Source: a candidate division WWE3 bacterium (GTDB lineage: Bacteria; Patescibacteriota; WWE3; UBA101185; UBA10185). Taken from it: 64,000 bases of DNA. The translations under genes and the position numbers were made by a program. The DNA is taken from assembly GCA_014729135.1 (NCBI GenBank), contig WJKK01000001.1:455599-519598 (forward strand). Reading direction: 5' to 3'. Below the pieces are notes generated by a model. It did no database searches. It saw nothing but the letters and a program-made list of their open reading frames with translations, and was not told the DNA's origin. Shown piece after piece: positions 4,542-55,939 of the stretch (its first letter is position 1; each line of letters begins with the position of its first letter).

Positions 4542-5036
4542 GTGTTTTTAAATATGTCTTACCTTCTTTTTACTGAAATCCTTCACTTTTTGGGAGCTTT
4601 GGCTTTATTTTTACTCTTTCTCCGTTTTTACAAGTGGTATATAGCAGGATTTTCCTTTCTATTTGGTTTTCTAATAGATGTAGATCATCTTTTTGATTAC
4701 TTTTATTTTATGAAATTTTTTAATAGGGGCTTTAACTTACGGGATTTTCTTTCAGCACAGTCTGTTACAACCGGAAAAATTTTTATTCCTTTTCATGGAT
4801 GGGAATGGGTTGTCCTACTGCTTCTCTTAGCATTGCTTTTTAGGGCTCTTCTTAACAGTGGAACTTTAAAAAAGGACTTTTGGAAAATTTTGGCTCAGAT
4901 TCTTTTTGTTGCAGGTACTTCTTTATTTACACATATTTTAACGGATTACTTTACTAACGAGGTGGGTTTTGGGGCCTATTCTTTCTTTTGGCGTTGGAGC
5001 AATGGTTTCTATACATCTTTAATCTGTGGAAAGTAA
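4542..5036 (+). CDS. small polytopic membrane protein (possibly DUF457/YdjM-like membrane metal-dependent hydrolase)
   Basis: Four hydrophobic segments and a 'FLIDVDHLFDYF' Asp/His motif. The family assignment is tentative. Confidence 0.45.
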   Translation: MFLNMSYLLFTEILHFLGALALFLLFLRFYKWYIAGFSFLFGFLIDVDHLFDYFYFMKFFNRGFNLRDFLSAQSVTTGKIFIPFHGWEWVVLLLLLALLFRALLNSGTLKKDFWKILAQILFVAGTSLFTHILTDYFTNEVGFGAYSFFWRWSNGFYTSLICGK

Positions 5037-5110
5037 TTTTTACTTGACACAACAAGCAGAAGTGTCCTGAAAGTTTGGTAAAAGTGCAATTTTAATGCAA
5101 TAATGCTTCT

Positions 5111-6013
5111 ATGAGTGGAAATGAAATAGACTTTATAGGTATTGGAGGGTACCGCTGTGCTACTACCTGGATTTCTCGTTGTTTGCAAGAACATCCCGAT
5201 ATTTTATTTTCTGCTCAGAAATCTCAAAAGGAGCTTCACTTCTTTAATGATCAAATAATTTCCGGGCTTTATTACAAGAAAAACCCACGTTATGCAAAAG
5301 GACTAAAATGGTATTTAAAACAATTTCCTAAAGCAAAACCGGGGAAGTTGCGAGGGGAATATTCCGTTAGTTATCTTCCTGACAAAAAAGCTCCCCAAAG
5401 AATTAAAGAGGCATTCTCGAACGTAAAATTGATAGTTTCTTTAAGGAATCCTGTAGATGTTTTATATTCCGGATTTAAGTATTCTCGAGGCGGCATTTTA
5501 TCTGAGGTGGATGAATTTCCTTCAATTTTTGAGAAGGTCCTAGAGAGCAACGATTATCTGGATTTGGGGTTTTATAGTAACCATTTGAAGCGTTATTTTG
5601 ACTTATTTCCTCGAGAAGATGTATTTATAATTATTTATGAAGAAGATATTTTGGAAAAGCCTGCGGAAACGATACAGAATTTATATCGCTTTTTGGGGGT
5701 TGTGGATGATGTTATTCCTCCCACTCTAGAGCAGAGAATAAATAAGTCTTTCCAGGTAAAAATGCCCTATTTGAAGAAGCTAGGGGAAATTGTTTATACT
5801 TATTTGGGTGATTGGAGGATTCCTGTGCTTAACAAGACTATCTTTCAAACTCGGTTTTTTCGGGATCTCTATTCTTTGATAAATAAAAAAGACTCTGCTA
5901 TAGAGGCGATGCGTCCGGAGGTACGTAGCAAGTTAGAAAAGTTTTATCATAAGGATATATCCAGGCTGGAGAATCTCATAGGGCGTGATCTATCTTGTTG
6001 GAGGTCTGACTAG
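5111..6013 (+). CDS. sulfotransferase-family protein
   Basis: 'IGIGGYRCATTWISRCL' resembles the 5'-phosphosulfate-binding loop (PKxGTTW). 'SLRNPVDVLYSGF' resembles the 3'-phosphate-binding RDP motif. ~300 aa. Confidence 0.6.
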   Translation: MSGNEIDFIGIGGYRCATTWISRCLQEHPDILFSAQKSQKELHFFNDQIISGLYYKKNPRYAKGLKWYLKQFPKAKPGKLRGEYSVSYLPDKKAPQRIKEAFSNVKLIVSLRNPVDVLYSGFKYSRGGILSEVDEFPSIFEKVLESNDYLDLGFYSNHLKRYFDLFPREDVFIIIYEEDILEKPAETIQNLYRFLGVVDDVIPPTLEQRINKSFQVKMPYLKKLGEIVYTYLGDWRIPVLNKTIFQTRFFRDLYSLINKKDSAIEAMRPEVRSKLEKFYHKDISRLENLIGRDLSCWRSD

Positions 6014-6015
6014 AT

Positions 6016-7119
6016 ATGCGGGTTCTTTCTTTTATGAACTCCTATTCTTATGGCCTTTCCGGTAGTGATGTAGTTTTAATTCGCATAGCTCCGCAAGTTT
6101 TTAAGGATTTTAATCAAACTGTTATAACTTCAAGAATGGGGCGTCTTGTTTGTGAGAAAAATGATTTTACTCCAAATTTCATAGTTACAACCAAGGAAGA
6201 AAGGTTTAAAAGTATAATTTGGACTTATATTAAGAGGATTTTTCTTGCTTCCTTGAGCGTACTAAGGGAGCCTATTCCTAATATTTGTTTTGCTTCGTCT
6301 GATTTTTTGCCGGATGTTTTTCCCTGCTTTCTGCTCAAACTTAAAAATCCCGATACTTTATGGGTGCAGCACATTTATCATTCTATACCTAGGCAACGCG
6401 TAATTCCTTTTTTAGCTCAAAGAATAAGCTTTATTCTAATTCGTTTTCTAGCAGATAAAGTGGTTGTGGATAATAAAATTTTAAAGCAGGATCTTATTGA
6501 AATGGGTTTTAAGCCCTCCAGATTATATTTAAATTATCCGGGATTGGATTTTGAGAAGTTTGAAAATTTACCGGAACCCAAGAAAGAATATACCGCTTCT
6601 TTTATTGCCCAATTAAGGCGCTCTAAAGGTGTTTTAGATTTGCCGGAGATTTGGGCTCATGTTGTTAAAGACTTTCCCGATGCAAATTTAGCTATTATTG
6701 GAAGTGGTACTAAGGAACTTCTTGAGGAATTAAAACAAAGGATTCTATTTTTAGATTTGCAGGAGAATATAGATGTTTTAGGGTTCTTGCCTAATAAAGA
6801 GGCCTTTTCCATTATTAAGGATTCGGATGTTTTTGTCTTTCCCAGTTATGAGGAGGGTTTTGGGTTAGCTCCTTTAGAAGCACAGGCGTGTGGTACTCCG
6901 GTGGTGGCTCGGGATCTTCCGGTTTATGAGGAGATTTTCCCGGAGGGTATGGTTAAGGCTTCTTTGGGTGATTATAGGGGTTTTTGGCAGGCGGTTCTTG
7001 AGGTTCTGGTAGATCCAAGACTAGCTGATGATTTAGTTGAAGCATGTCATGTGAACTCCGCACTTTTTAGCTGGTCTAAAACCATTTCTCGAGAGAAGGA
7101 AATATTAGAACTGGCTTGA
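6016..7119 (+). CDS. GT4 (group-1) glycosyltransferase
   Basis: C-terminal 'FVFPSYEEGFGLAPLEAQACGTPVVARDLPVYEEI' (EX7E-type motif). Confidence 0.8.
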   Translation: MRVLSFMNSYSYGLSGSDVVLIRIAPQVFKDFNQTVITSRMGRLVCEKNDFTPNFIVTTKEERFKSIIWTYIKRIFLASLSVLREPIPNICFASSDFLPDVFPCFLLKLKNPDTLWVQHIYHSIPRQRVIPFLAQRISFILIRFLADKVVVDNKILKQDLIEMGFKPSRLYLNYPGLDFEKFENLPEPKKEYTASFIAQLRRSKGVLDLPEIWAHVVKDFPDANLAIIGSGTKELLEELKQRILFLDLQENIDVLGFLPNKEAFSIIKDSDVFVFPSYEEGFGLAPLEAQACGTPVVARDLPVYEEIFPEGMVKASLGDYRGFWQAVLEVLVDPRLADDLVEACHVNSALFSWSKTISREKEILELA

Positions 7120-12138: not shown

Positions 12139-15100
12139 ATGCTTAAATTCTTTTCTATTTTTAGGGATTATTCGGGATTCATTGGGGGTGACCAACTTTG
12201 GCTTCTTAATCCCTCTTTCAAGGGTATTTTACAGTCCGTCGCAACCTTTAATTACGGATCTGTTTCTTTTATTTCTGAGTTTTTCCCGTTGCAGGCCCTA
12301 TATTTGTTGTTTTCTGGGGTTGACCTAATTTACTTTCAATTGTTTTATGTCCTTTTTTTACACATAGTTGCTATTGTATCCTTTCATTTTTTATTACGCA
12401 CTCTTTTCAAGAGGGTATTTTTAGGGGTATCTCTCCTTTATGGCGCGAATTGCTTTGTAGTATCCTCATTTTTTCAGGATCGCTTAATGCCCATTTTTGC
12501 ACTATTTCCTCTTATATTCTTACTGTACTACAGACTGTTACACCAAAGAGATCTGAAATCTATTCTTTTTATCTCTCTATTAACCCCATTTTTCTCTGGG
12601 TCGTTGATTAACCCCCCTGTTGTTTTGTCTTTCTGTCTAATCCTCTTTCTTTATTTTGTCCACTATATCTATACTGAGAGAGATGTCGACTGGTCTTTCC
12701 TTTTACTCAGTCATTTTGCGTTGGGTTTTTTACTGATACTTGTTAATTTTTGGCACTTGACTACTTTAATTCCCTTTTTATTGTCTGGCTCGGATATCTC
12801 TTCTAAGGTTAATAGTTTTCGTGCTACAGGATCAGGTTATCTCTTTGATCACTTTAGGCTGCTGGGGCGTTGGTCCTGGTATACAGGCCATTACAAGTAT
12901 CCCTATTATTTGCATGCTTCCGACTACTATAAATTTCCCCTGATAGTTATTACTTATAGCACGCTTCTTTTTCCCTTGATATTCCTATACAAACTGTTGT
13001 CTTCCTGGCAGTATTCTAAGAAAGATAAAAGGTTGTACTCCTTTGCTGCTTTCCTATATCTGGTATCCATTTTTTTGGTTAATGGTTCAAAGCATCTTTT
13101 AGGTGTCCTGTTCAATTTGGTCTATTTATCTCATCCCTATTTTTGGATATTCCGGGAGCCTTATACCAAGTTTATGCCCCTCGCTGTATTCTCTCTGCCT
13201 ATAATATATAATGGTGCTTTTCTTTACGCTAGCCGTAAATTTAAGAGAGTAACTTACAGGCTTATCGCTGCTCTTTTCTTTCTGTTTATTTCTCTTGGGG
13301 TATACCCCATTGTCCTGGATAAGTTCAGCCCTGGTTATTGGAATGGAAATATGCGGTCTACCTTCTTCAAGATACCTAAGTACTGGGTGGAACTACGTTC
13401 TTACCTGCAAAAGGATTTTGGGGGTCATAAGAGGTTATTTGCTTTCCCTTATACAACTTATGGTACTGCCTACAATTGGTTGGAAGGGCTGTCCTCTACC
13501 ACTGACTTTGGCCGGCTCTATTTAGATATGTCTAACGTAAGTGCCACTCCCTTTAGTCTTAAATACTCCGACTTCATTATAAATAGCATTTACTCTCCCA
13601 GCGAGGCTACCTATTCTGCAAATTTTTTAGGTTTTCTCAATATCTTTTATGTTATTCAAGAAAACGATGTAGATTGGCGTTATGCCAGCTCCCGTACATT
13701 AGATCCTCAAAAGATGAATCAAATCATTTCCTCTATGGATTTAGAGCTTATAGAAACTTTTGGTCAATTTACCCCTAATTACTTGGAGCAGATTCCAAAT
13801 GAGGAACCTGATGATTCTCTCCGTAACGAAATGTACGTTAAGCTTTTGGGAGAGCCCGGCCTTGAGCTATATAAAATTCCTGATAAATACTACCTTCCGA
13901 AATTTTACGTTCCTAATCAGTACAATCATGTTTCTGGAAACTTTGATGATTTATTGAAACTGTATTCCGCCGAAAATACTGTTCGTGAGCCTGTCTACTA
14001 TTTTAGTTCAGAAGGATATCCTCAGACAGACTTTAGTGCACGTCCCCAACCTAGCAGGACCTTTGTGATAGGTTATTTGGATGAACCTCGTATAGATTTC
14101 GGTAAGCTTTTTTGGCATGAAGGCTGGGGTCTTCCTTCTGTGTCGGTAAATCCTAAAGATTCGAAGTACCGGCTGGTGCTATTAAAAGAGGGTGTGGAAA
14201 TTTTCAAAGAGCGGGACTATCTGCAGGAGGCCGATTTGCACGTTTGGTTTGCCTCCAAGCGTGTTGCCGAAATACAGGAGTTTGAGTTAAAAGGTGCTGC
14301 TTTAGAGCGCGCCGTTGATAACCTAGAAGGTCACTTGAATAGGGCTATGTTCTTACTTGAAGAGAATCCTGTTTTGGAATTTGATGCCGAAGCATATGAG
14401 ACTTATTGGGGTATGGTCGCAAAGGTGTTGATGTATAGCCAGAACAATATTGCTGCTCTGAAGGACTATCCTGCAGTAGAGTCTTCTGCCATTGAAGCTT
14501 TAATAGAGCGGTGTCATGCGTTTTACACATGGATAGAATCCCGCAATGATTACTCCTGTGAAGATACCTCTGTACCTTGTTACGTCTTTGATGTTCCCGT
14601 TGGCGGGGAGTATGAGTTTTCCGGGGGAGATGCGCGGATATTCCTGGAATCAGGCGAGTATAGCCGTAATGTACCTTCTGACTTTCCTTTAGTGAAGGCG
14701 GTGGAATCTCTTCCTTTGGAGGTTTTGTCTCCTACTGTGGAGATCCCTAATTGGGATGCGGACAAGGACTACCGTGTTTCCTTTGATTACAAGATTTTAA
14801 ATAGTTCCGTAGAAGTGGGTGTGCTTGAAGAACAATGGGACTATGGTGTGATAGGAGATGAGATTGGAAAGGTGGATTGGGAAAAAGTTCGCCAGGGCGA
14901 TTTTCCCGTGAGGAGGGAGCGGACTCAAGAACATGTTTTGAACTCTTCTCAAATCTGCTTCAGGGAAGGTGCGGTTTGTTATTCCAACTTCGAAATGATA
15001 GTAAATCCCTCTCGGAATAGTGTCGCCGGTTCCATTTATTTTAAGTTACCCTTGGAACAGGATTTTACAAAGAAGATTGAGATTAAGAATATTAAAATAG

Positions 15101-48211: not shown

Positions 48212-48359
48212 GGGGATCTTCTTTCTAAGGTGACAAACCCCTTTTCGTTTCCACGACTTCGCTTCGCTCCGAAATGTCACCGAAAAGGGGCCCATCACCT
48301 TATACGTATTTTCCAAATCATTGCAGGAAAAACCCACCTTGTATATACTTTAGTTATAT

Positions 48360-50628
48360 GAATAAATCCACTGCCCACATTCTCAAATTTTCCGATATTA
48401 GAAAAGCCGACCTTCCCTATGTTGGAGGTAAAGGGGCAAACCTTGGTGAGATGTTTGCTGCAGGCATTCCCGTTCCTGATGGTTTTGTAGTTACAGCAAA
48501 AGCTTATTTTGATTTTCTGGATACCACTTCTCTTAGACAAAAGATTCTCACAGAACTATCCGGTTTAAATACAGATGACTCTAATGCTCTATCTCAGGCG
48601 TCTAAAAATATAAAAACTGCAATTTTAGCAGCAAAAATGCCTGATTCTCTAAAAGAAGAAATCCGCAAAGCCTATCATCATCTTTCAGGAGATCACAATG
48701 CTTTGGTAGCTGTTAGATCCTCCGCTACGGCTGAAGACCTTCCGGATGCCTCGTTTGCAGGTCAACAGGAGACCTATCTAAATATTGAAGGAACTGAGGA
48801 TGTTGTTGAACATGTGCAAAAATGTTGGGCATCCCTTTTTGAGGCTCGGGCAATTTTTTACCGTACGGAAAATGGATTTGATCATCTTAAGGTTGGCATA
48901 GCAGTTCCGGTGCAGCTAATGGTTCAGTCGGAAGTTTCCGGAATTATGTTTACGGTTAATCCGCTGACTAACAATCGTGACGAGGTCTCTGTGGAGGCTG
49001 CTTTTGGGTTAGGTCAGCCCATTGTTTCCGGAGAGGTCACGCCGGATCAATTCATAGTTGACAAAGAATCCGGTGAAATAAAGTCAAAACATCTCTCCTT
49101 GCAGAAGTGGCAGCTGACTCAAGCCGGTAAAACTCCTATAGCAAAGGCACATCAAAAGGTTCAGAAGCTGGATGATTCTCATGTGAAGGAGCTTGCTCAA
49201 CTGGGTGTGAAAATTGAAGATCATTATGGGCGTCCTCAGGATATCGAGTGGGCTATGGAGGGTGGAGAGCTTTTAATAGTGCAGTCGCGTCCGGTTACAA
49301 CTTTGAAGCGCAAAAAAGAGGAGGAGGTTACAGTAGTAAATCCTGATGAAGCTGCAAAGTTTATTCTGGAGGGTTTGGGGGCTTCTCCGGGAGTAGCTTC
49401 AGGCCCGGTTAAAGTGATAAAGGATGCTTCCGAAATTTCCAAAGTTAAAAAAGGTGATGTTTTGGTTGCGGTTATGACTAATCCGGATTTTGTGCCGGCA
49501 ATGCGTAGAGCCTGTGCAATTTTAACGGATGAGGGTGGGCGAACTTCTCATGCTGCTATTGTTAGTCGCGAGCTTGGAATTCCCGCTATAGTTGGCTCTC
49601 AACAGGCTACTTCTATGCTAAGTCCCGGTGAGGTTATAACGGTGGATGGCTCCAATGGGAAGGTTTATTCAGATGATGTTACCAAAGTAGAAAAGGTGGA
49701 AGTTGAGGATATTGATTATGAAAGTCTAAAGACGGCTACAAAGATTTATATGAACTTGGCAGAGCCTGATTTGGCTGCGGAAATGGCTGAAAAAAATGTG
49801 GATGGTGTGGGGCTTTTGCGCGCGGAGTTTATGATTGCTCAAATTGGGAAGCATCCACGAAAGTTTATTAAGGAGGGTAAGCAGCAGGAGTTTATTGATG
49901 CATTAACGGAGGGTCTTACTCGATTTGCCGAAGCTTTTGATCCTCGTCCTGTGGTCTACAGATTTACGGACTTTCGAACTAATGAATATGCTAATTTGGA
50001 GGGCGGTCAGGAGTTTGAAAAAGATGAGCCTAATCCAATGATTGGCTTTAGAGGAGTTAGCCGTTACATAGAAGATGACGATGTTTTTGAGTTGGAACTT
50101 GAGGCAATTAAGAAGGTTCGCAATAAGTTGGGGCATAAGAATTTGCATGTGATGTACCCTTTTGTACGTACAGTGGATCAGCTTAAAGAAGTTAAAAAGA
50201 TTACAGCTGCTTCCGGTTTACAGCGAGGTCCCTCTTTTAAGGTCTGGATGATGGTGGAGATTCCCTCTAACGTAATTTTGCTGGATGACTTCATTGACGT
50301 GGGAATTGATGGCGTTTCTGTTGGTACCAATGATTTGACGATGCTTACTTTGGGAGTTGATAGGGATAATGAGCGTGTTGCTAACGTTTATAGCGAGATG
50401 AATCCGGCGGTTTTGCAGAGTTTGGAAAAAATTGTTAAGACTTGTAGAAAACGTAAAGTTACATGTTCGATTTGTGGTCAGGCGCCCTCTGTTTATCCTG
50501 AATTGGTTAAGATGTTGGCGGATTGGGGAATTACTTCCATTTCGGTGAGTCCCGATGTTTTAAACAAAACACGAAAGATTGTTTATGATGCTGAACATGA
50601 GGTTTTAAAGAAGGCGGGTAAGAAGTAG
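48360..50628 (+). CDS. ppsA: phosphoenolpyruvate synthase (pyruvate, water dikinase); a PPDK-like alternative is not excluded
   Basis: 'YVGGKGANLGEM', phosphohistidine domain 'GGRTSHAAIVSRELGIPAIVG' and PEP-utilizing C-terminus 'CGQAPS'. Start taken at ATG 48360; the track ORF opens at 48274. Confidence 0.75.
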
Positions 50629-50676
50629 TGGTTTTTGGCGGAGTTTCAGAAGCCTTTAACTTTAGCAACAGATTTT

Positions 50677-51939
50677 ATGAGTTTAATTAAGTCAATTACT
50701 GCCTATAAAGTTTTAAATTCCCGTAGTGACTGGACGGTTAGGGCGCAGGTGACTCTAGAGGATGGTACGGTTGCAAGTCAGACGGTTCCTGAAGGTGCTT
50801 CTAAAGGGGAAAATGAGTCTATTTCGGTTCCTATTGATGAGGCAATTAGAAATATTCGCATTGACATAGCGCCTGCTCTTGTAGGCAAGTCTCCTTTTAA
50901 TCAGCGTGATATTGACGAAACCATGATTAAGCTGGATGGTACTGATAATGACTCTAATTTAGGTGGGAATGCGGTTTTGGCGGTTTCTTTAGCTGTTGCT
51001 AAGGTGGCTGCTAAGTCTCAAGGGAAGGAGCTTTATACGTATTTGCGGGATTTGTATTTGGAAGGTAATGATAGTGCTGATTCCGGCGAGGCTCCTAAGG
51101 GCTCGGACTTTAAGTTTCCAACTCCGGTTTTTAACATTTTAAATGGTGGAAAGCATGCGCAAAATGGGCTTCCCTTTCAGGAGTTTATGGTTATTCCTGC
51201 TATGAATTTATCTTACGAGAAAAAGTTGGAGGTTGGTGTTGCTTGTTACAAGACTTTAAAGGAGCATCTTCATTCGGAGGATCTTTCCATTGGTGTTGGT
51301 GATGAGGGTGGTTTTGCTCCTGTAGGTTTGTCGGTTAAGGAGGCTTTGGATAAGCTGGTTTCTGCTGTTAAGGAGGCAAATTTTACTTTAGGCAAGGATG
51401 TTTTTTTGGGAACGGATGTGGCAGCGGGCAGTTTTTATGATCAGGAGCGTAGTTTGTACATTTTTGAGGATGCCGGTATGGAGCTTACTACTGATGAGTT
51501 TTTTGACTTTTATGAAGGCCTTTTAAAGGATTATCCTTTGATTTACGTGGAGGATCCCTTATTTGAAGCTGATTTTGCTGCTTGGCATAAGTTTTTTGGT
51601 CGCTTTAAGGAGAAAACCATGGTAGTTGGGGATGATTTGGTTGTAACTAATGCTAAGATTTTGGAAAAGGCTCTGCAGGAAAAGACTATTAATGCGGTTA
51701 TTGTGAAGCCTAATCAGGTGGGCAGTTTAACGGAGACTTTTGATTTTGTTCGTTTAGCACAGGAAAATGGTTTGGTGGTTACGGTTTCTCACCGGAGTGG
51801 TGATACAGCAGAGGATACCTTTGTTTCGGATTTAGCGCTGGCTGTGGGAGCTGACTTTGTTAAGTTTGGTGCTACAGCACGTGGAGAGCGTGTTGTTAAG
51901 TACAACCGAATTCTGGAAATCTACCACCAAAAAACTTAG
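50677..51939 (+). CDS. eno: enolase
   Basis: 'KPNQVGSLTETFDFVRLAQENGLVVTVSHRSGDTAEDTFVSDLALAVGA' plus N-terminal 'ITAYKVLNSRSDWTV'. ATG 50677 is preferred over the TTG at 50635 used by the track. Confidence 0.85.
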   Translation: MSLIKSITAYKVLNSRSDWTVRAQVTLEDGTVASQTVPEGASKGENESISVPIDEAIRNIRIDIAPALVGKSPFNQRDIDETMIKLDGTDNDSNLGGNAVLAVSLAVAKVAAKSQGKELYTYLRDLYLEGNDSADSGEAPKGSDFKFPTPVFNILNGGKHAQNGLPFQEFMVIPAMNLSYEKKLEVGVACYKTLKEHLHSEDLSIGVGDEGGFAPVGLSVKEALDKLVSAVKEANFTLGKDVFLGTDVAAGSFYDQERSLYIFEDAGMELTTDEFFDFYEGLLKDYPLIYVEDPLFEADFAAWHKFFGRFKEKTMVVGDDLVVTNAKILEKALQEKTINAVIVKPNQVGSLTETFDFVRLAQENGLVVTVSHRSGDTAEDTFVSDLALAVGADFVKFGATARGERVVKYNRILEIYHQKT

Positions 51940-52055: not shown

Positions 52056-53166
52056 ATGTTGAAGGATCCTAGAAATACAAATTTAGCTAAGGTGTTAGTT
52101 GAGCATTCCCTAGAGGTTGGTAAAGGTGATAATGTAGTTATTTCTACTTCCGATCTTTCCACCGGGTTGTTGGGTATTAAAGTATGATTCTGATGATTTT
52201 GGGGACAAAATTTTTGTACGAAGTAATGGGACTAAGGTTTATACTGCAAAAGATACCGCTTATCATCTTTGGAAGTTTGGCCTTTTGGGTAAGGACTTTT
52301 TATATAAATTATGGGATTCTGAATCCTTGACTCAGCCGACTTATCGGACTTCCCTGGAAGGTAAATCTTTCGATTCCTTCGGTAGTGCGGATATCATTGT
52401 TAACTTGATCGATGAACGTCAAACATATCCTCAAGAGATGGTTAAGCATGCCCTACATAGTTTGGGTTATGCAGAAGAGGCTGCGGAATATAATCACATA
52501 GCGTATGGAGTTGTTTCACTTTCAAAGGATACCGCGGAAGCTCTCGGAGTGGAAGTTTCGGATGACAAAGAAGTTTATGCTATGTCCGGTCGTAAGGGAA
52601 TCGGAGTAAAGGTTACCGATTTACTTGATTTATTGTGTAAGGAAATTTCGCAAATCCAGAGGAAATCCGGAGTTGATTTAACAGATCCAGATCTTGCCTC
52701 CTCTCAAGAGATAGCATTGGCAGCTATAAAGCACTATATGCTAAAAAATAATCCCTACACACCTATCTTGTTTGATTACAAGCAGGCGCTGAAATTAGTG
52801 GGGAATACAGGTCCTTACCTTCAGTATTCTCATGCACGTGCTTGCAGTATCTTAAAGAAATTTGAGCCCTTTGACACTAGTTGTACTAAGGGAGCGGAAC
52901 TTGCCTCAACTGAAGAGGCATTGTTAAAAGATTTGGAAAGTTGGCCTTTTATAGTAGGTCGTGTCTTGGAGGACTTCAACTTAGCCATTTTGTCGGAGTA
53001 TGCCTTTACTTTAGCGCAATCTTTCCACACGTTTTATGAGCATAACAATGTCTCTCAGTCAGAAGGTTCTGTTAAAAATTTTCGTCTAACCTTGATTCTG
53101 GCTTTTACTAAAGTTATGCAAGAGGTTTTGCAGGTTATGGGTATTTCTGCTCCTAAAAGGATGTAG
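52056..53166 (+). pseudogene. argS: chimeric gene remnant. The first ~29 codons (ATG 52056) look like an M29 aminopeptidase N-terminus and are fused in frame to the middle of arginine--tRNA ligase. A +1 frameshift (extra T at ~52258-52261) follows, then an intact 293-aa ArgRS C-terminal half. The HIGH region is absent.
   Basis: Frame 0: 'MLKDPRNTNLAKVLVEHSLEVGKGDNVVI' is AmpS/PepS-like. 'GCWVLKYDSDDFGDKIFVRSNGTKVYTAKDTA' is the ArgRS 'GALWFDL..FGD..V.RKSDGT.TY.TRDIAYH' block. Frame +1: 'YHLWKFG...', 'AMSGRKGIGVKVTDLLDL' and the DALR anticodon-binding 'GPYLQYSHARACSILKKF'. Only 340 nt separate the enolase stop from this block, so about 280 N-terminal ArgRS codons are missing. Confidence 0.6.
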
Positions 53167-53170
53167 TTTC

Positions 53171-54550
53171 TTACTCAATCACATAAGCAGCATAGTCTTG
53201 GCCTAGTTGAGTTTCTATAGTTGCAGTTTCCTCATCGCTTAATTCTTCAAAGTACTTTCTAAAACATCGAATAGAGTTTCCATGACAAGAAACTGCTACA
53301 TTAATCTGTTTTTCCTTCATTTCCTTAACGAGATCCTCTGCAAAAGCGCTAACACGTTTATAAACCATGCCAATGCTTTCTCCATGTGGGGGCTGTCCAT
53401 GATAAGTCCTTCTAATACGATGCAAAAACTCCGGATCCTTTTTATGCCACTCTAACTTACTTTGTCCCTGTAAATCACCATAGGAGCGCTCTTTAATACG
53501 TTCATCCTTTTCAATTTTTAAGTTCTTAGCGCTTTCATTTTTAGACATTGCAATTTTCATAGTTTGGAGTGCTCGCTTTTGCGGGGAAGATATTAGCTTA
53601 TCTATTTTTTTATCCTTTAACTTTTCTGCCAAAACTTCCGCCTGCTCTTCTCCTCTTTCTGTTATTGGAGCTGTTCTCCATCCGCTAAAGACGTATTTTT
53701 TATTGTCTACACTTTCACCATGCCTAAAAATATACAAAGTAGGTTTCTCATTGGATTCCTCTTTAGGCAGTTCATCTACCTCACGATACTCTAAACGAGC
53801 TTCTACTTCTGCTAATTCTTCCTTTGTTATTTCAGGAACCGGCTTATTCTTTAACTCTTTGTACTTTGCTAAAATCTCCGGATGATCTTTTTCATTTGGA
53901 ACTTCTTTCAACAGAGTTCCCTTCTCGCGCTTTCTATAAAAGTAGTAAAACCCTACGGCTAGGGCAGCTAAAAACAGTATTTCCATAATAGTAGAAGCAC
54001 TCTCAATCCCCTCAGATAACTGCTCGGAAGCAGCTAATCCCGTAAAGCCTAAATAAAGGAAAAACAAGTTTCTAACAATGCTTCCTAAAAAAGTTCCAAC
54101 AGCAAAAACTTTATAGTTTAATTTAATTAATCCGCAAACCACCGAAATAGGGGAGCTTGGCATAACAGGGATGCTTCTTAAAATTGTAAGAGTGGTGTAG
54201 TCTCTGGTGGTACCTTCAAAGCGGGAGCCAATTTTTTCTACATGTTTATGAGAGATTCCTAAGAACTTGCCAAATTTGCCAACGACTAAGTCTTCTCCCA
54301 AGTCAGCTAAAAAGTATAAAACGCTTGCACCTATGACTCTTCCAAAAGCGCCAAAAACTGCTACTACTCCTAAATACCAAAGAGCCTTTTGCTGCGCCTG
54401 CGCTATGCTTCCTGTGGCGGTCATTACAAAGGGGGAGGGGATTGGTGCAATAATCTCCTCGACAATTGTTCCTAGGACGCTAAAAAGTTCTAAGGGAATT
54501 GATCTTGCTAATGTTTCCAGATATGTGGTTATTTCAGTTATGAAATGCAT
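53171..54550 (-). CDS. fusion protein: DedA/SNARE-associated (TVP38-like) membrane domain + 2,3-bisphosphoglycerate-dependent phosphoglycerate mutase-like histidine phosphatase domain
   Basis: Residues 1-200 have DedA-like TM helices. Residues ~265-459: 'LYIFRHGESVDNKKYVFSGWRTAPITERGEEQA' (RHG catalytic motif; compare GpmA 'RHGESQWNKENRFTGW'), 'ERSYGDLQG' and 'HGNSIRCF'. Single uninterrupted frame with no internal Met/RBS. Confidence 0.7.
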   Translation of the reverse strand: MHFITEITTYLETLARSIPLELFSVLGTIVEEIIAPIPSPFVMTATGSIAQAQQKALWYLGVVAVFGAFGRVIGASVLYFLADLGEDLVVGKFGKFLGISHKHVEKIGSRFEGTTRDYTTLTILRSIPVMPSSPISVVCGLIKLNYKVFAVGTFLGSIVRNLFFLYLGFTGLAASEQLSEGIESASTIMEILFLAALAVGFYYFYRKREKGTLLKEVPNEKDHPEILAKYKELKNKPVPEITKEELAEVEARLEYREVDELPKEESNEKPTLYIFRHGESVDNKKYVFSGWRTAPITERGEEQAEVLAEKLKDKKIDKLISSPQKRALQTMKIAMSKNESAKNLKIEKDERIKERSYGDLQGQSKLEWHKKDPEFLHRIRRTYHGQPPHGESIGMVYKRVSAFAEDLVKEMKEKQINVAVSCHGNSIRCFRKYFEELSDEETATIETQLGQDYAAYVIE

Positions 54551-54601
54551 GTAATTAGCTTACATGAGGTTTTATGCAAAGCCAAGTTATTTCCGATCTT
54601 G

Positions 54602-55234
54602 TTATTTAGCGTATTTTCTTACAACTCCTGTGACCTTACCCTGAATTTGCAAGTCTTTAGCGTCAACAAAAATAGGATCCATCTTTGAATTTGCCGGTTG
54701 CAATCTAATTTGACCCTTACCTTCATTATAGTAGCTTTTAAGTGTTGCAAATCCGTTGTCAATAAGTGCCACAACAATATCTCCATCTTTTGCTGTGTTT
54801 TGCTGCTGAATAACAACGTAATCTCCATCAAAGATTCCCTGATCAATCATAGAATCTCCCTTTACTTGCAAAACATAACATCTTCGATTTTTAGAAACCA
54901 AATCAGCTGAAACCATTACAGTTTCCAGCGAGTTTTCAATAGCCTCAATTGGTTCTCCTGCGGCAATATAACCAACCAAAGGAAGTTCTATACCCTGTAA
55001 AGAAGTGTCAATAAGCTCCGTAATGATTTCAATTCCTCTAACTGCTCCATCGTAGCGCTTAATAAAACCTTTCTTTTCTAAAGCACTTAAATGTTCATGC
55101 ACTGTTGCTAGTGAGGAAAGCCCCATGGCATCAGCAATTTCTTGTAAAGTGGGAGAAGTATTATTCTTTTGAATAAACTGGGAAACGAAATTTAGTACTT
55201 GTTTTTGCCTTTTGTAAAGAGTTACGGGACTCAT
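54602..55234 (-). CDS. lexA: LexA repressor (S24 peptidase)
   Basis: wHTH N-terminus 'LQEIADAMGLSSLATVHEHLSALEKKGFI', catalytic 'GDSM' Ser and 'ATLKS' Lys. Confidence 0.9.
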   Translation of the reverse strand: MSPVTLYKRQKQVLNFVSQFIQKNNTSPTLQEIADAMGLSSLATVHEHLSALEKKGFIKRYDGAVRGIEIITELIDTSLQGIELPLVGYIAAGEPIEAIENSLETVMVSADLVSKNRRCYVLQVKGDSMIDQGIFDGDYVVIQQQNTAKDGDIVVALIDNGFATLKSYYNEGKGQIRLQPANSKMDPIFVDAKDLQIQGKVTGVVRKYAK

Positions 55235-55333
55235 TAGACCTCCTTTGTTAAATTGTTAAGTAATTCCCAAACTCATTTGTGACTTTGGGTTTTGTTTGTG
55301 TAAATTTAGTGTACCGAAAATTTTACGAAGGTG

Positions 55334-55939
55334 TCAAGAGTTTTGTTTTTTTAGGACATTTTCAAAGCTTATATTCAGATGTCGTTGTATAAAACGGATG
55401 TCCTCGGTATTGGTTGTTATTTGTCTGTGATTTGCAAAGTAGACTCTGGTTAAGTCTTTAATATCGTCCCTTATTCTTCTTTCTGTGGATTCGATCAGGG
55501 TTCTTAATGTTTTGTGATCTTGGAAGCGCTCGTCACTTGTTTTATAGTCAATCTCTTTAATTTCCTCCTTAAGATTTTTCTCCATGTTTTTCAGGTCATT
55601 TTCTACTTGTTTTAATTTATTTGCCAGCTTAGTCTGTTTTCCTTTAACTGACTTTAGGTCTGTTTTGACGCCTTTGATATCCGTTTTTAGGTCTGTTTTA
55701 ACGCCTATGATGTCCTCTTTTAAGTTTGCTTTAACGGCTTTGATATCCTCTTTCAGGTTTGTTTTAACACCTATGATATCCTCTTTTAGATCTGTTCTAA
55801 CGCTTTTGATATCCTCTTTTAACTCTTTTCTCAGAGCGTCAATCTTTGTGTTCAACTTAGTATCCAAGTCATTTATAAGGTTTGCTATTTCTTCAATTTG
55901 CATTACTTTAAATTTACCAAAACCCCCTAAACATGTCAA
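55334..55939 (-). CDS. hendecad (11-residue) repeat, K/D/E-rich coiled-coil/amphipathic-helix protein
   Basis: Six or more tandem 11-aa units 'VKTDLKEDIKG' (LKEDIKSVRTD / LKEDIIGVKTN / LKEDIKAVKAN ...). True start is probably Met13 (MQIEEIANL), directly behind TTGACA-17-TAAATT (leaderless). Confidence 0.6.
   Translation of the reverse strand: MTCLGGFGKFKVMQIEEIANLINDLDTKLNTKIDALRKELKEDIKSVRTDLKEDIIGVKTNLKEDIKAVKANLKEDIIGVKTDLKTDIKGVKTDLKSVKGKQTKLANKLKQVENDLKNMEKNLKEEIKEIDYKTSDERFQDHKTLRTLIESTERRIRDDIKDLTRVYFANHRQITTNTEDIRFIQRHLNISFENVLKKQNS
55625..55822. repeat. about six tandem 33-bp DNA repeats (e.g. GTCTGTTTTAACGCCTATGATGTCCTCTTTTAA) encoding the hendecad units
   Basis: Units phased at 55658, 55691, 55724, 55757 and 55790, with a degenerate unit at 55625. 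Confidence 0.75.

Follow-up and report, generated by a model that had tools for sequence, protein, structure and literature searches.

What does a gene encode that joins a DedA-type membrane domain to a phosphoglycerate-mutase-like domain within one reading frame, and do its two halves act together? The question is raised by a fusion gene that lies next to lexA in a stretch of 64,000 nucleotides (hereafter the window) from a candidate division WWE3 bacterium (assembly GCA_014729135.1, contig WJKK01000001.1, positions 455,599 to 519,598 of the forward strand). As judged from its sequence, the product of the gene is probably a cofactor-dependent phosphoglycerate mutase (dPGM) that is anchored in the membrane and faces the cytoplasm, a reading to which we assign a probability of about 0.6. 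We favor it because the set of dPGM residues is complete, the dPGM subfamily model TIGR01258 is passed, the closest sequence and structure matches are dPGMs, and the gene is syntenic with those for enolase and phosphoenolpyruvate (PEP) synthase. The first-pass annotation of the locus had offered two readings, and the conservative one, a membrane-tethered phosphoglycerate mutase (PGM), fits the evidence best.

Architecture of the fusion protein

The open reading frame (ORF) starts with ATG and runs through 459 codons of the window sequence with no internal stop; it is one uninterrupted frame, as originally described, and no stop or frameshift separates two genes. Profile searches against Pfam recovered both domains with significant scores, namely VTT_dom (DedA, PF09335) at residues 37–168 (E = 4e-15, 56.7 bits against a gathering score of 33.9) and His_Phos_1 (branch-1 histidine phosphatase) at residues 272–446 (E = 3e-39). 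The AlphaFold2 (AF2) model of the protein has a mean predicted local distance difference test (pLDDT) score of 86, with values of 90–98 in the core of the C-terminal domain and below 50 at residues 215–221 of the linker, whose columns are gapped and unconserved in an alignment of 80 sequences.

The fusion is genuine, neither a product of chance nor an error of assembly. The very same protein has been recorded as GF360_02550 (candidate division WWE3, 864-kb contig), and full-length two-domain homologues with 48–77% identity form about 80 clusters, drawn from independent NCBI, JGI, ENA and Logan assemblies. When 1.84 billion representatives at 50% identity were searched exhaustively with HMMER, a single protein spanned the two domains, and over 100 free-standing relatives of either half came after it; at this level of identity, the full-length homologues merge into one cluster. 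The names given to the homologues by annotation pipelines vary from 'hypothetical' through 'histidine phosphatase family protein' and 'PhoE/DedA' to 'phosphoglycerate mutase'. The architecture had initially been flagged as one not known to be characterised, and our literature search found neither a characterised example of a fusion between DedA and a histidine phosphatase or PGM nor a paper on one. Both halves come from known families; their combination is undescribed in the literature searched and confined to one WWE3 subclade. A paper on soil phosphatases that includes DedA proteins deals with other proteins.

The C-terminal domain carries the motifs RHGES..N..FSGW, ERSYGDLQG and HGNSIR, and it passes the dPGM subfamily model TIGR01258 of NCBIfam with 92.5 bits against a cut-off of 81.7. 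Its best sequence match in the PDB is the Schizosaccharomyces pombe PGM 1FZT (E = 2e-21), which aligns to residues 272–444 (about 175 residues) with three single-residue gaps, and the top matches in a Foldseek search of the PDB with the AF2 model are dPGMs as well. Specifically, alignments with 1FZT and with the yeast enzyme place yeast R7, H8, S11 and N14 at R276, H277, S280 and N283; yeast T20, R59, E86, Y89 and K97 at S289, R326, E354, Y357 and K365; and yeast R113, R114, H181 and N183 at R380, R381, H423 and N425. All catalytic and substrate-binding residues of a dPGM are present, the catalytic His and Arg among them, which bears out the dPGM signatures noticed at first sight. Twelve of the 13 equivalents are invariant in 38 fused proteins, the exception being S280. 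Among 79 WWE3 orthologues, nine are fully invariant, comprising R276, H277, N283, R326 and E354 of the catalytic and phosphate pocket together with Y357, K365, R381 and N425. The remaining positions vary little: S280 is Ser or Thr, S289 is Ser or Cys, R380 is kept in 78 of the 79 sequences (one His), and H423 reads Ser in two sequences, probably through an alignment offset.

By the standard ping-pong mechanism of the family, such a domain would interconvert 3-phosphoglycerate and 2-phosphoglycerate. His277 would carry the phosphate, primed by 2,3-bisphosphoglycerate, and Glu354 would serve as the acid/base. The phosphate in transfer would be held by Arg276, Arg326, His423 and Asn283, while Tyr357, Lys365, Arg380/381 and Asn425 would form the sites for the carboxylate and the distal phosphate. 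The mutase step would then sit between phosphoglycerate kinase and the enolase and PEP synthase/pyruvate phosphate dikinase (PPDK) encoded by the neighboring genes. No sequence resembling the cofactor-independent enzyme (iPGM) was found in the window or in about 1 Mb of syntenic loci, and no second His_Phos_1 domain occurs within the window. The literature on WWE3/Katanobacteria that we found does not state which PGM these bacteria use.

In the AF2 model, the N-terminal domain contains two re-entrant elements, the first at residues 20–52 with an invariant PIPSP and the second at residues 115–141 with the sequence R125-x-x-P-x-x-P-x-x-P-I-S, and long helices at residues 58–97, 146–170 and 176–209, with pLDDT values mostly of 80–95. 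To place it within the DedA superfamily, we aligned it with Escherichia coli YghB (COG0586), YdjX and YdjZ (COG0398) and the canonical DedA proteins of other WWE3 genomes, whereas YqaA (COG1238) was only scored with a hidden Markov model (HMM). COG0586 undecaprenyl phosphate (UndP) flippases are marked by four charged residues at their re-entrant helices' tips (Todor, Herrera and Gross 2023, PMC10127716). Two of these hallmarks are retained here, YghB E39 and R130 aligning with E31 and R125, and two are missing, YghB D51 being replaced by an invariant P40 and YghB R136 by a near-invariant P131. The second re-entrant motif, R-S-I-P-V-M-P-S-S-P-I-S-V-V-C-G-L, matches R-L-L-P-F-V-P-F-D-P-I-S-Y-A-A-G-L of YdjZ in spacing and residues. 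Among the E. coli proteins, YdjZ also scores highest with the N-domain HMM (22.9 bits, versus 2.5 for YghB and 0.3 for YqaA), while the two UptA models of NCBIfam reach 58.8 bits against a cut-off of 250, the best match of the domain, and 42.4 against 300. The motif in the second re-entrant helix (RH2) and the YdjZ score suggest a COG0398-like domain, although E31 is retained and the identity is only about 20%. The original assignment to the DedA/TVP38 type is upheld. COG0398 proteins lack the four charged residues, are unlikely to be UndP flippases and resemble eukaryotic scramblases, and DedA proteins have a transporter-like inverted-repeat architecture (PMC10127716). The COG0398 subfamily is recognized by the lack of an acidic pair at the tip of re-entrant helix 1, the loss of one or both RH2 arginines and an RH2 motif like that of eukaryotes; its members presumably act as lipid scramblases or transporters.

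The distribution of charge over the modelled helices indicates the orientation in the membrane. At least 12 Lys and Arg residues lie on the side of the C-terminus, in the loops 83–118 (six) and 142–147 (two) and in RKREK at 206–210, whereas the opposite side carries two, one at the N-terminus, one in the loop 53–57 and none in the loop 173–186. Because Lys and Arg cluster on their side, the positive-inside rule would place the linker and the mutase domain in the cytoplasm. The mutase is thus predicted to face the compartment where phosphoglycerates are, which answers the question of topology that accompanied the first description. Under our favored reading, the N-terminal half would be an autonomous DedA protein of the YdjZ/COG0398 kind that keeps its own lipid or transport function. 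Through the fusion, a flexible linker some 15 residues long would hold the mutase at the inner membrane face, and mutase chemistry would proceed independently of the DedA part, so that the two halves would share a tether rather than a coupled reaction.

Gene order and origin of the fusion

To place the fusion in its lineage, one genome per species was scanned, which gave 79 loci with the mutase; all are labelled WWE3, Patescibacteria or similar members of the candidate phyla radiation (CPR), except for one labelled Aenigmatarchaeota (L085). The mutase gene belongs to a conserved WWE3 block in which uvrB and lexA diverge, lexA is followed by a slot and then by the dPGM gene in the same direction, and eno and pps converge on the latter. 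Specifically, lexA lies upstream of the mutase gene at 73 of the 79 loci, enolase is convergent at 75 and within 150 nt at 51, and a DedA-family gene adjoins the mutase gene in 63 of the 79 species.

What fills the slot differs among the loci. At 22 of the 79 loci, the mutase is directly preceded by an N-type DedA in the same orientation, and about 18 of these are intact single ORFs. An N-type DedA on the opposite strand occupies 12 loci, a canonical COG0586 DedA (FLPGDSLL ... ARFIPIVRTFAPFVAG) lies on the opposite strand at 26 and on the same strand at three, and about 11 loci hold nothing; the canonical type is barely detected by the N-domain HMM, and these classes rest on inspection of the ORFs. 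Across WWE3 species (L032–L081), one slot thus holds two very different DedA subfamilies. The canonical COG0586 type retains all four hallmark residues, and the PIPSP/YdjZ-like type is the one that became the fusion partner. The fusion, which the first-pass annotation knew from one locus and proposed to seek in other genomes, recurs in about 18 species-level genomes.

In a neighbor-joining tree of the C-terminal domain, all same-strand (fused-class) loci, the window included, fall in one clade, except for L026, where N-type DedA and mutase are separate and co-directional. Inside the clade, L029 and L031 carry the mutase gene alone directly after lexA, the DedA part having been lost. Every evolutionary state is seen, including a divergent DedA gene, a co-directional unfused pair, a fusion, and a fusion whose DedA part is lost. 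The simplest history looks like an old pair of genes that became co-directional and then fused once: in one subclade the old neighbors would have turned to the same direction and the intervening stop would have been lost. On the same view, the mutase could be retained without the DedA part, which L029 and L031 lost. Free-standing N-type DedA proteins form a large family that is usually unlinked to a mutase gene, and in most WWE3 species the mutase is encoded as a free soluble protein, separate from the DedA gene.

Table 1 Features of the fusion gene and its surroundings (positions in the window; aa, amino acids of the fusion protein).
Feature	Position	Strand	Description and basis
Fusion ORF, whole	53171..54550	-	DedA/VTT membrane domain joined through a linker to a short-form dPGM domain; 459 aa and stop codon (ORF list, Pfam, NCBIfam)
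DedA-superfamily membrane domain, aa 1-210	53921..54550	-	Two re-entrant helix-loop-helix elements and three long transmembrane helices; appears YdjZ/COG0398-like
Linker, aa 211-221	53888..53920	-	Variable, low-confidence; directly after the RKREK stop-transfer cluster behind the last transmembrane helix
Pre-domain extension, aa 222-270	53741..53887	-	Two helices and motif L-x-Y-x4-D/E-L-P-K-x-E (conservation; AF2 helices 224-234 and 243-253)
dPGM core, aa 271-459	53174..53740	-	Short form, predicted nucleophile H277, no C-terminal tail (His_Phos_1, TIGR01258, 1FZT alignment, Foldseek)
lexA-fusion spacer	54551..54601	-	51 nt
lexA	54602..55234	-	Upstream co-directional neighbor (TIGR00498, 212 bits)
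lexA promoter motif	55308-55337	-	Candidate LexA operator of the lineage
Coiled-coil protein gene	55334-55939	-	201 aa, between lexA and uvrB
argS fragment	52285..53166	+	293 aa; C-terminal half of ArgS only, profile positions 326-613 (Pfam, NCBIfam)
Short out-of-frame ORF	52056-52184		MLKDPRNTNLAKVLVEHSLEVGKGDNVVI...; precedes the argS fragment
Enolase	50635..51939	+	Next glycolytic step (Pfam)
PEP synthase / PPDK-type	48274..50628	+	Directly upstream of enolase (PPDK_N, PEP-utilizers, PEP-utilizers_C)

Mutase, phosphatase or coupled membrane function

Several observations weigh against an anchored mutase. All NCBIfam equivalog models for dPGM score far below their cut-offs, the best being NF002217 with 107.5 against 320. 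The protein stops at the last β-strand, 15 residues past the point where the 1FZT alignment ends, and lacks a C-terminal tail; the tail is missing in all 79 orthologues, which end in ...AAY-x-I-x. In the S. cerevisiae and E. coli dPGMs, this tail forms a cap over the active site, and enzymes deprived of it lose the mutase activity but keep the phosphatase activity. Even the S. pombe PGM, which is active and monomeric, carries about 12 residues beyond the point where the window protein ends. Finally, the adjacency of a DedA gene and the mutase gene in so many WWE3 species could signal a functional link beyond synteny.

Since the tail is missing, the serious rival is a phosphatase instead of a mutase, a reading that we consider unlikely and yet worth weighing in full. 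The C-terminal domain would then be a phosphatase derived from a dPGM, comparable to the dPGM-like PspA of Hydrogenobacter, and its possible substrates would include 2,3-bisphosphoglycerate, phosphoglycolate and phosphoserine. This would agree with the loss of a C-terminal lid to shield the phospho-histidine from water throughout the orthologues, with NCBIfam scores of 95 bits for alpha-ribazole phosphatase and 78 bits for PspA, both below cut-off, and with PhoE and PspA structures matching at a TM-score of about 0.8 in Foldseek. The binding pocket argues otherwise. Y357, K365, R381 and N425 are conserved in all 79 orthologues, and R380 has a single exception; to our knowledge, the phosphoglycerate-binding residues are not retained by the superfamily's generic phosphatases, and for contrast the histidine-phosphatase domain inserted in an isoleucyl-tRNA synthetase (IleRS) of the CPR, P0095, lacks the dPGM substrate residues. 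TIGR01258 is passed, and the linkage to eno and pps is phylum-wide, extending to 75 of the 79 loci. Moreover, a conserved extension of about 50 residues precedes the domain and also heads the free-standing WWE3 orthologues, which match the query from about residue 243 on; this extension might take over the role of the missing lid.

The persistent pairing of DedA with a tail-less dPGM may alternatively reflect a joint function at the membrane, in which case the fusion would be no passive tether. We regard this as improbable. One possible form is a cytoplasm-facing phosphatase acting on a lipid-linked or membrane-delivered phosphate ester, for example de novo undecaprenyl pyrophosphate or phosphatidylglycerophosphate at the inner leaflet, where the enzyme responsible for dephosphorylation is unclear in many bacteria. 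Another possible form is a transporter-enzyme pair for scavenged phosphoglycerates.

The bolder proposal of the first-pass annotation, in which a DedA flippase would pair with a phosphatase for lipid or undecaprenyl phosphate, has not survived well and now seems very improbable. It holds that a DedA-type UndP or phospholipid flippase is coupled to a phosphatase acting on undecaprenyl pyrophosphate (C55-PP), undecaprenyl phosphate (C55-P) or another lipid phosphate. Fusions of DedA with PAP2 do occur in the UndP-flippase subfamily (PMC10127716), UptA is the best NCBIfam match of the N-terminal domain, a DedA-family gene sits beside the mutase in 63 of the 79 species, and peptidoglycan and LCP genes lie nearby. 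However, the UptA score is far below its cut-off, P40 and P131 stand in place of YghB D51 and R136, and both the RH2 motif and the best E. coli match point to YdjZ/COG0398, argued not to flip UndP. The slot holds either DedA subfamily or nothing while the active site of the mutase stays unchanged; L029 and L031 dispensed with DedA altogether, and most WWE3 species have free soluble orthologues. The active site, with its phosphoglycerate residues kept, suits a small doubly anionic phosphoglycerate, and since the whole region is syntenic, adjacency is weak evidence.

A coupling of transport to metabolism, in which the DedA domain would import phosphoglycerate or a related small anion, for instance one scavenged from a host, and pass it to the mutase, appears just as improbable. 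The points in its favor are circumstantial: the inverted-repeat architecture of DedA is transporter-like, both halves of the fusion stay conserved among homologues as distant as 48% identity, and Patescibacteria are presumed to rely on other cells. They are countered by the large free-standing N-type DedA family, mostly unlinked to the mutase, and by the unfused genes on opposite strands in most WWE3 species; besides, we know of no DedA protein that carries phosphoglycerate-like substrates. An artefact, in which two genes would have been joined by chimeric assembly, by a frameshift or by an overlooked stop, has a negligible chance: some assemblies do contain split or frameshifted forms (separate genes at L026, a frameshift at L030), but the frame in the window is clean, and the same single ORF recurs in the species-level genomes and protein clusters counted above, across independent assemblies.

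If the gene does encode an anchored mutase, a core glycolytic enzyme would be permanently attached to the membrane of an ultra-small bacterium, and, provided that the enzyme is active, a dPGM would work without its C-terminal tail. The series of states, from opposite strands through co-directional and fused genes to a lost partner, is unusually complete and offers a case study of how a multi-domain protein arises from neighboring genes. The inconsistent annotation affects how the completeness of glycolysis is scored in metabolic reconstructions of WWE3. The payoff is modest unless the two domains are functionally coupled.

Flanking genes and comparison with known systems

The fusion gene had been placed immediately downstream of lexA on the same strand, and the gap is exactly 51 nt as stated. 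No terminator-like hairpin was found in this spacer. The ATG of the fusion lacks a Shine-Dalgarno sequence, whereas lexA has AAGGAGG, and a weak promoter-like pair, TTGGCT-N17-TAAGCT, ends 6 nt before the ATG; these features hint at a leaderless or read-through transcript. The suggestion of co-transcription within the SOS response stands in part. Given the short gap and the lack of a terminator, read-through from lexA is possible in this clade. In most relatives, however, an opposite-strand gene separates lexA from the mutase, so SOS control is not ancestral for the mutase, and no lexA promoter motif lies in the gap.

This motif, TTGACA-N2-TTCG-N7/8-TTCGGTA-N2-AT, was derived from 77 lexA upstream regions, those of 76 related loci (L001–L087) and the window, and is strikingly conserved. 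Between the –35 and –10 elements, TTCG occurs twice as a direct repeat, and CGAAG frequently follows about 15 nt downstream; the motif is a candidate for the LexA operator of this lineage. In the window, TTCG-N8-TTCGGTA has no match, whereas TTCG-N7-TTCGGTA matches exactly at lexA and with one mismatch at 14087–14104 (+), no more than expected by chance. A scan of the window allowing one mismatch found no copy in the 51-nt spacer. A dedicated LexA site for the fusion was considered and dropped, as the motif does not recur before the gene.

Between lexA and uvrB lies a gene for a predicted coiled-coil protein of 201 aa with about eight tandem 11-residue repeats (LKEDIxxVKTx), which gives only weak, sub-threshold apolipoprotein-like matches. 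An unannotated 183-aa gene occupies the corresponding position at L001.

On the other side, the fusion had been described as convergent to enolase. This is right for the orientation and for the lineage, since enolase is the direct neighbor in relatives; in the window, however, an argS fragment intervenes. The fragment is the direct convergent neighbor, ending 4 nt from the stop of the fusion, and enolase lies 1.2 kb away. Its sole plausible start is TTG at 52285, and the reading frame is open upstream to about 52160. It is preceded by a short out-of-frame ORF, which we take to resemble the start of an aminopeptidase. Because enolase abuts the fusion gene in close relatives, the segment 52056–53166 looks like the remnant of an inserted gene or a rearrangement junction.

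A different arrangement was seen on an unrelated 160-kb metagenomic contig (L091), where positions 5001–6917 encode a 638-aa fusion of a short dPGM with enolase (P0093) beside a PEP synthase-type gene. The contig also carries a gene for a TFIIS-type zinc ribbon and is probably not bacterial. This fusion would lend independent 'Rosetta stone' support to the idea that a short dPGM works with enolase.

Histidine-phosphatase domains are also found inside other proteins. Between one and five inserted PGM-like domains occur in the IleRS proteins P0209 (1161 aa) and P0095 (728 aa; labelled Candidatus Paceibacteria) and in another protein, P0237 (771 aa). Kantor et al. (2013) remarked on a split IleRS in SR1, which matches the IleRS with inserted PGM-like domains.

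Within E. coli, the N-terminal domain is closest to YdjZ of the TVP38/TMEM64 group (COG0398). The two share the same Pfam domain, the RH2 motif R-x-x-P-x-x-P-x-x-P-I-S-x-x-x-G-L and the short P-x-P tip of re-entrant helix 1, and differ in their low identity of about 20%, in E31, where YdjZ has Gln, and in an insertion of 12 residues after the first transmembrane helix. The COG0398 fusions listed so far involve pyridine-nucleotide disulfide oxidoreductase domains, and a fusion to a histidine phosphatase is not reported (PMC10127716). An architectural parallel is DedA::PAP2 of COG0586, which likewise combines a DedA-family membrane domain with a phosphatase (PMC10127716). That protein has all four hallmark residues, whereas the N-terminal domain here lacks two. 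PAP2 is an integral-membrane acid phosphatase with an outward-facing site, in contrast to the C-terminal domain of the fusion, which has the fold of a soluble histidine phosphatase and a phosphoglycerate site and is predicted to be cytoplasmic.

The mutase half in turn resembles the S. pombe PGM 1FZT. Both are of the short form, without the insertion of about 25 residues found in tetrameric and dimeric dPGMs, and both have the same catalytic and substrate-binding residues. At about 38% identity, the window protein differs in being tail-less and in adding the 50-aa extension and a six-helix membrane domain. PGAM5 is a membrane-anchored protein phosphatase of the PGAM family in mitochondria, with a single N-terminal transmembrane anchor and without mutase activity. 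Like the fusion, it has a phosphoglycerate-mutase-fold domain tethered by an N-terminal transmembrane part; unlike PGAM5, the fusion has a polytopic DedA domain and the full set of dPGM substrate residues. The free-standing WWE3 dPGMs, such as that of the complete genome RAAC2_WWE3_1 (CP006914, L050), are 52–66% identical over residues 243–459. They share the N-terminal extension, the residues and the position between lexA/DedA and enolase with the fusion, but they are unfused, and the adjoining DedA gene, which lies on the opposite strand, often belongs to the canonical COG0586 type.

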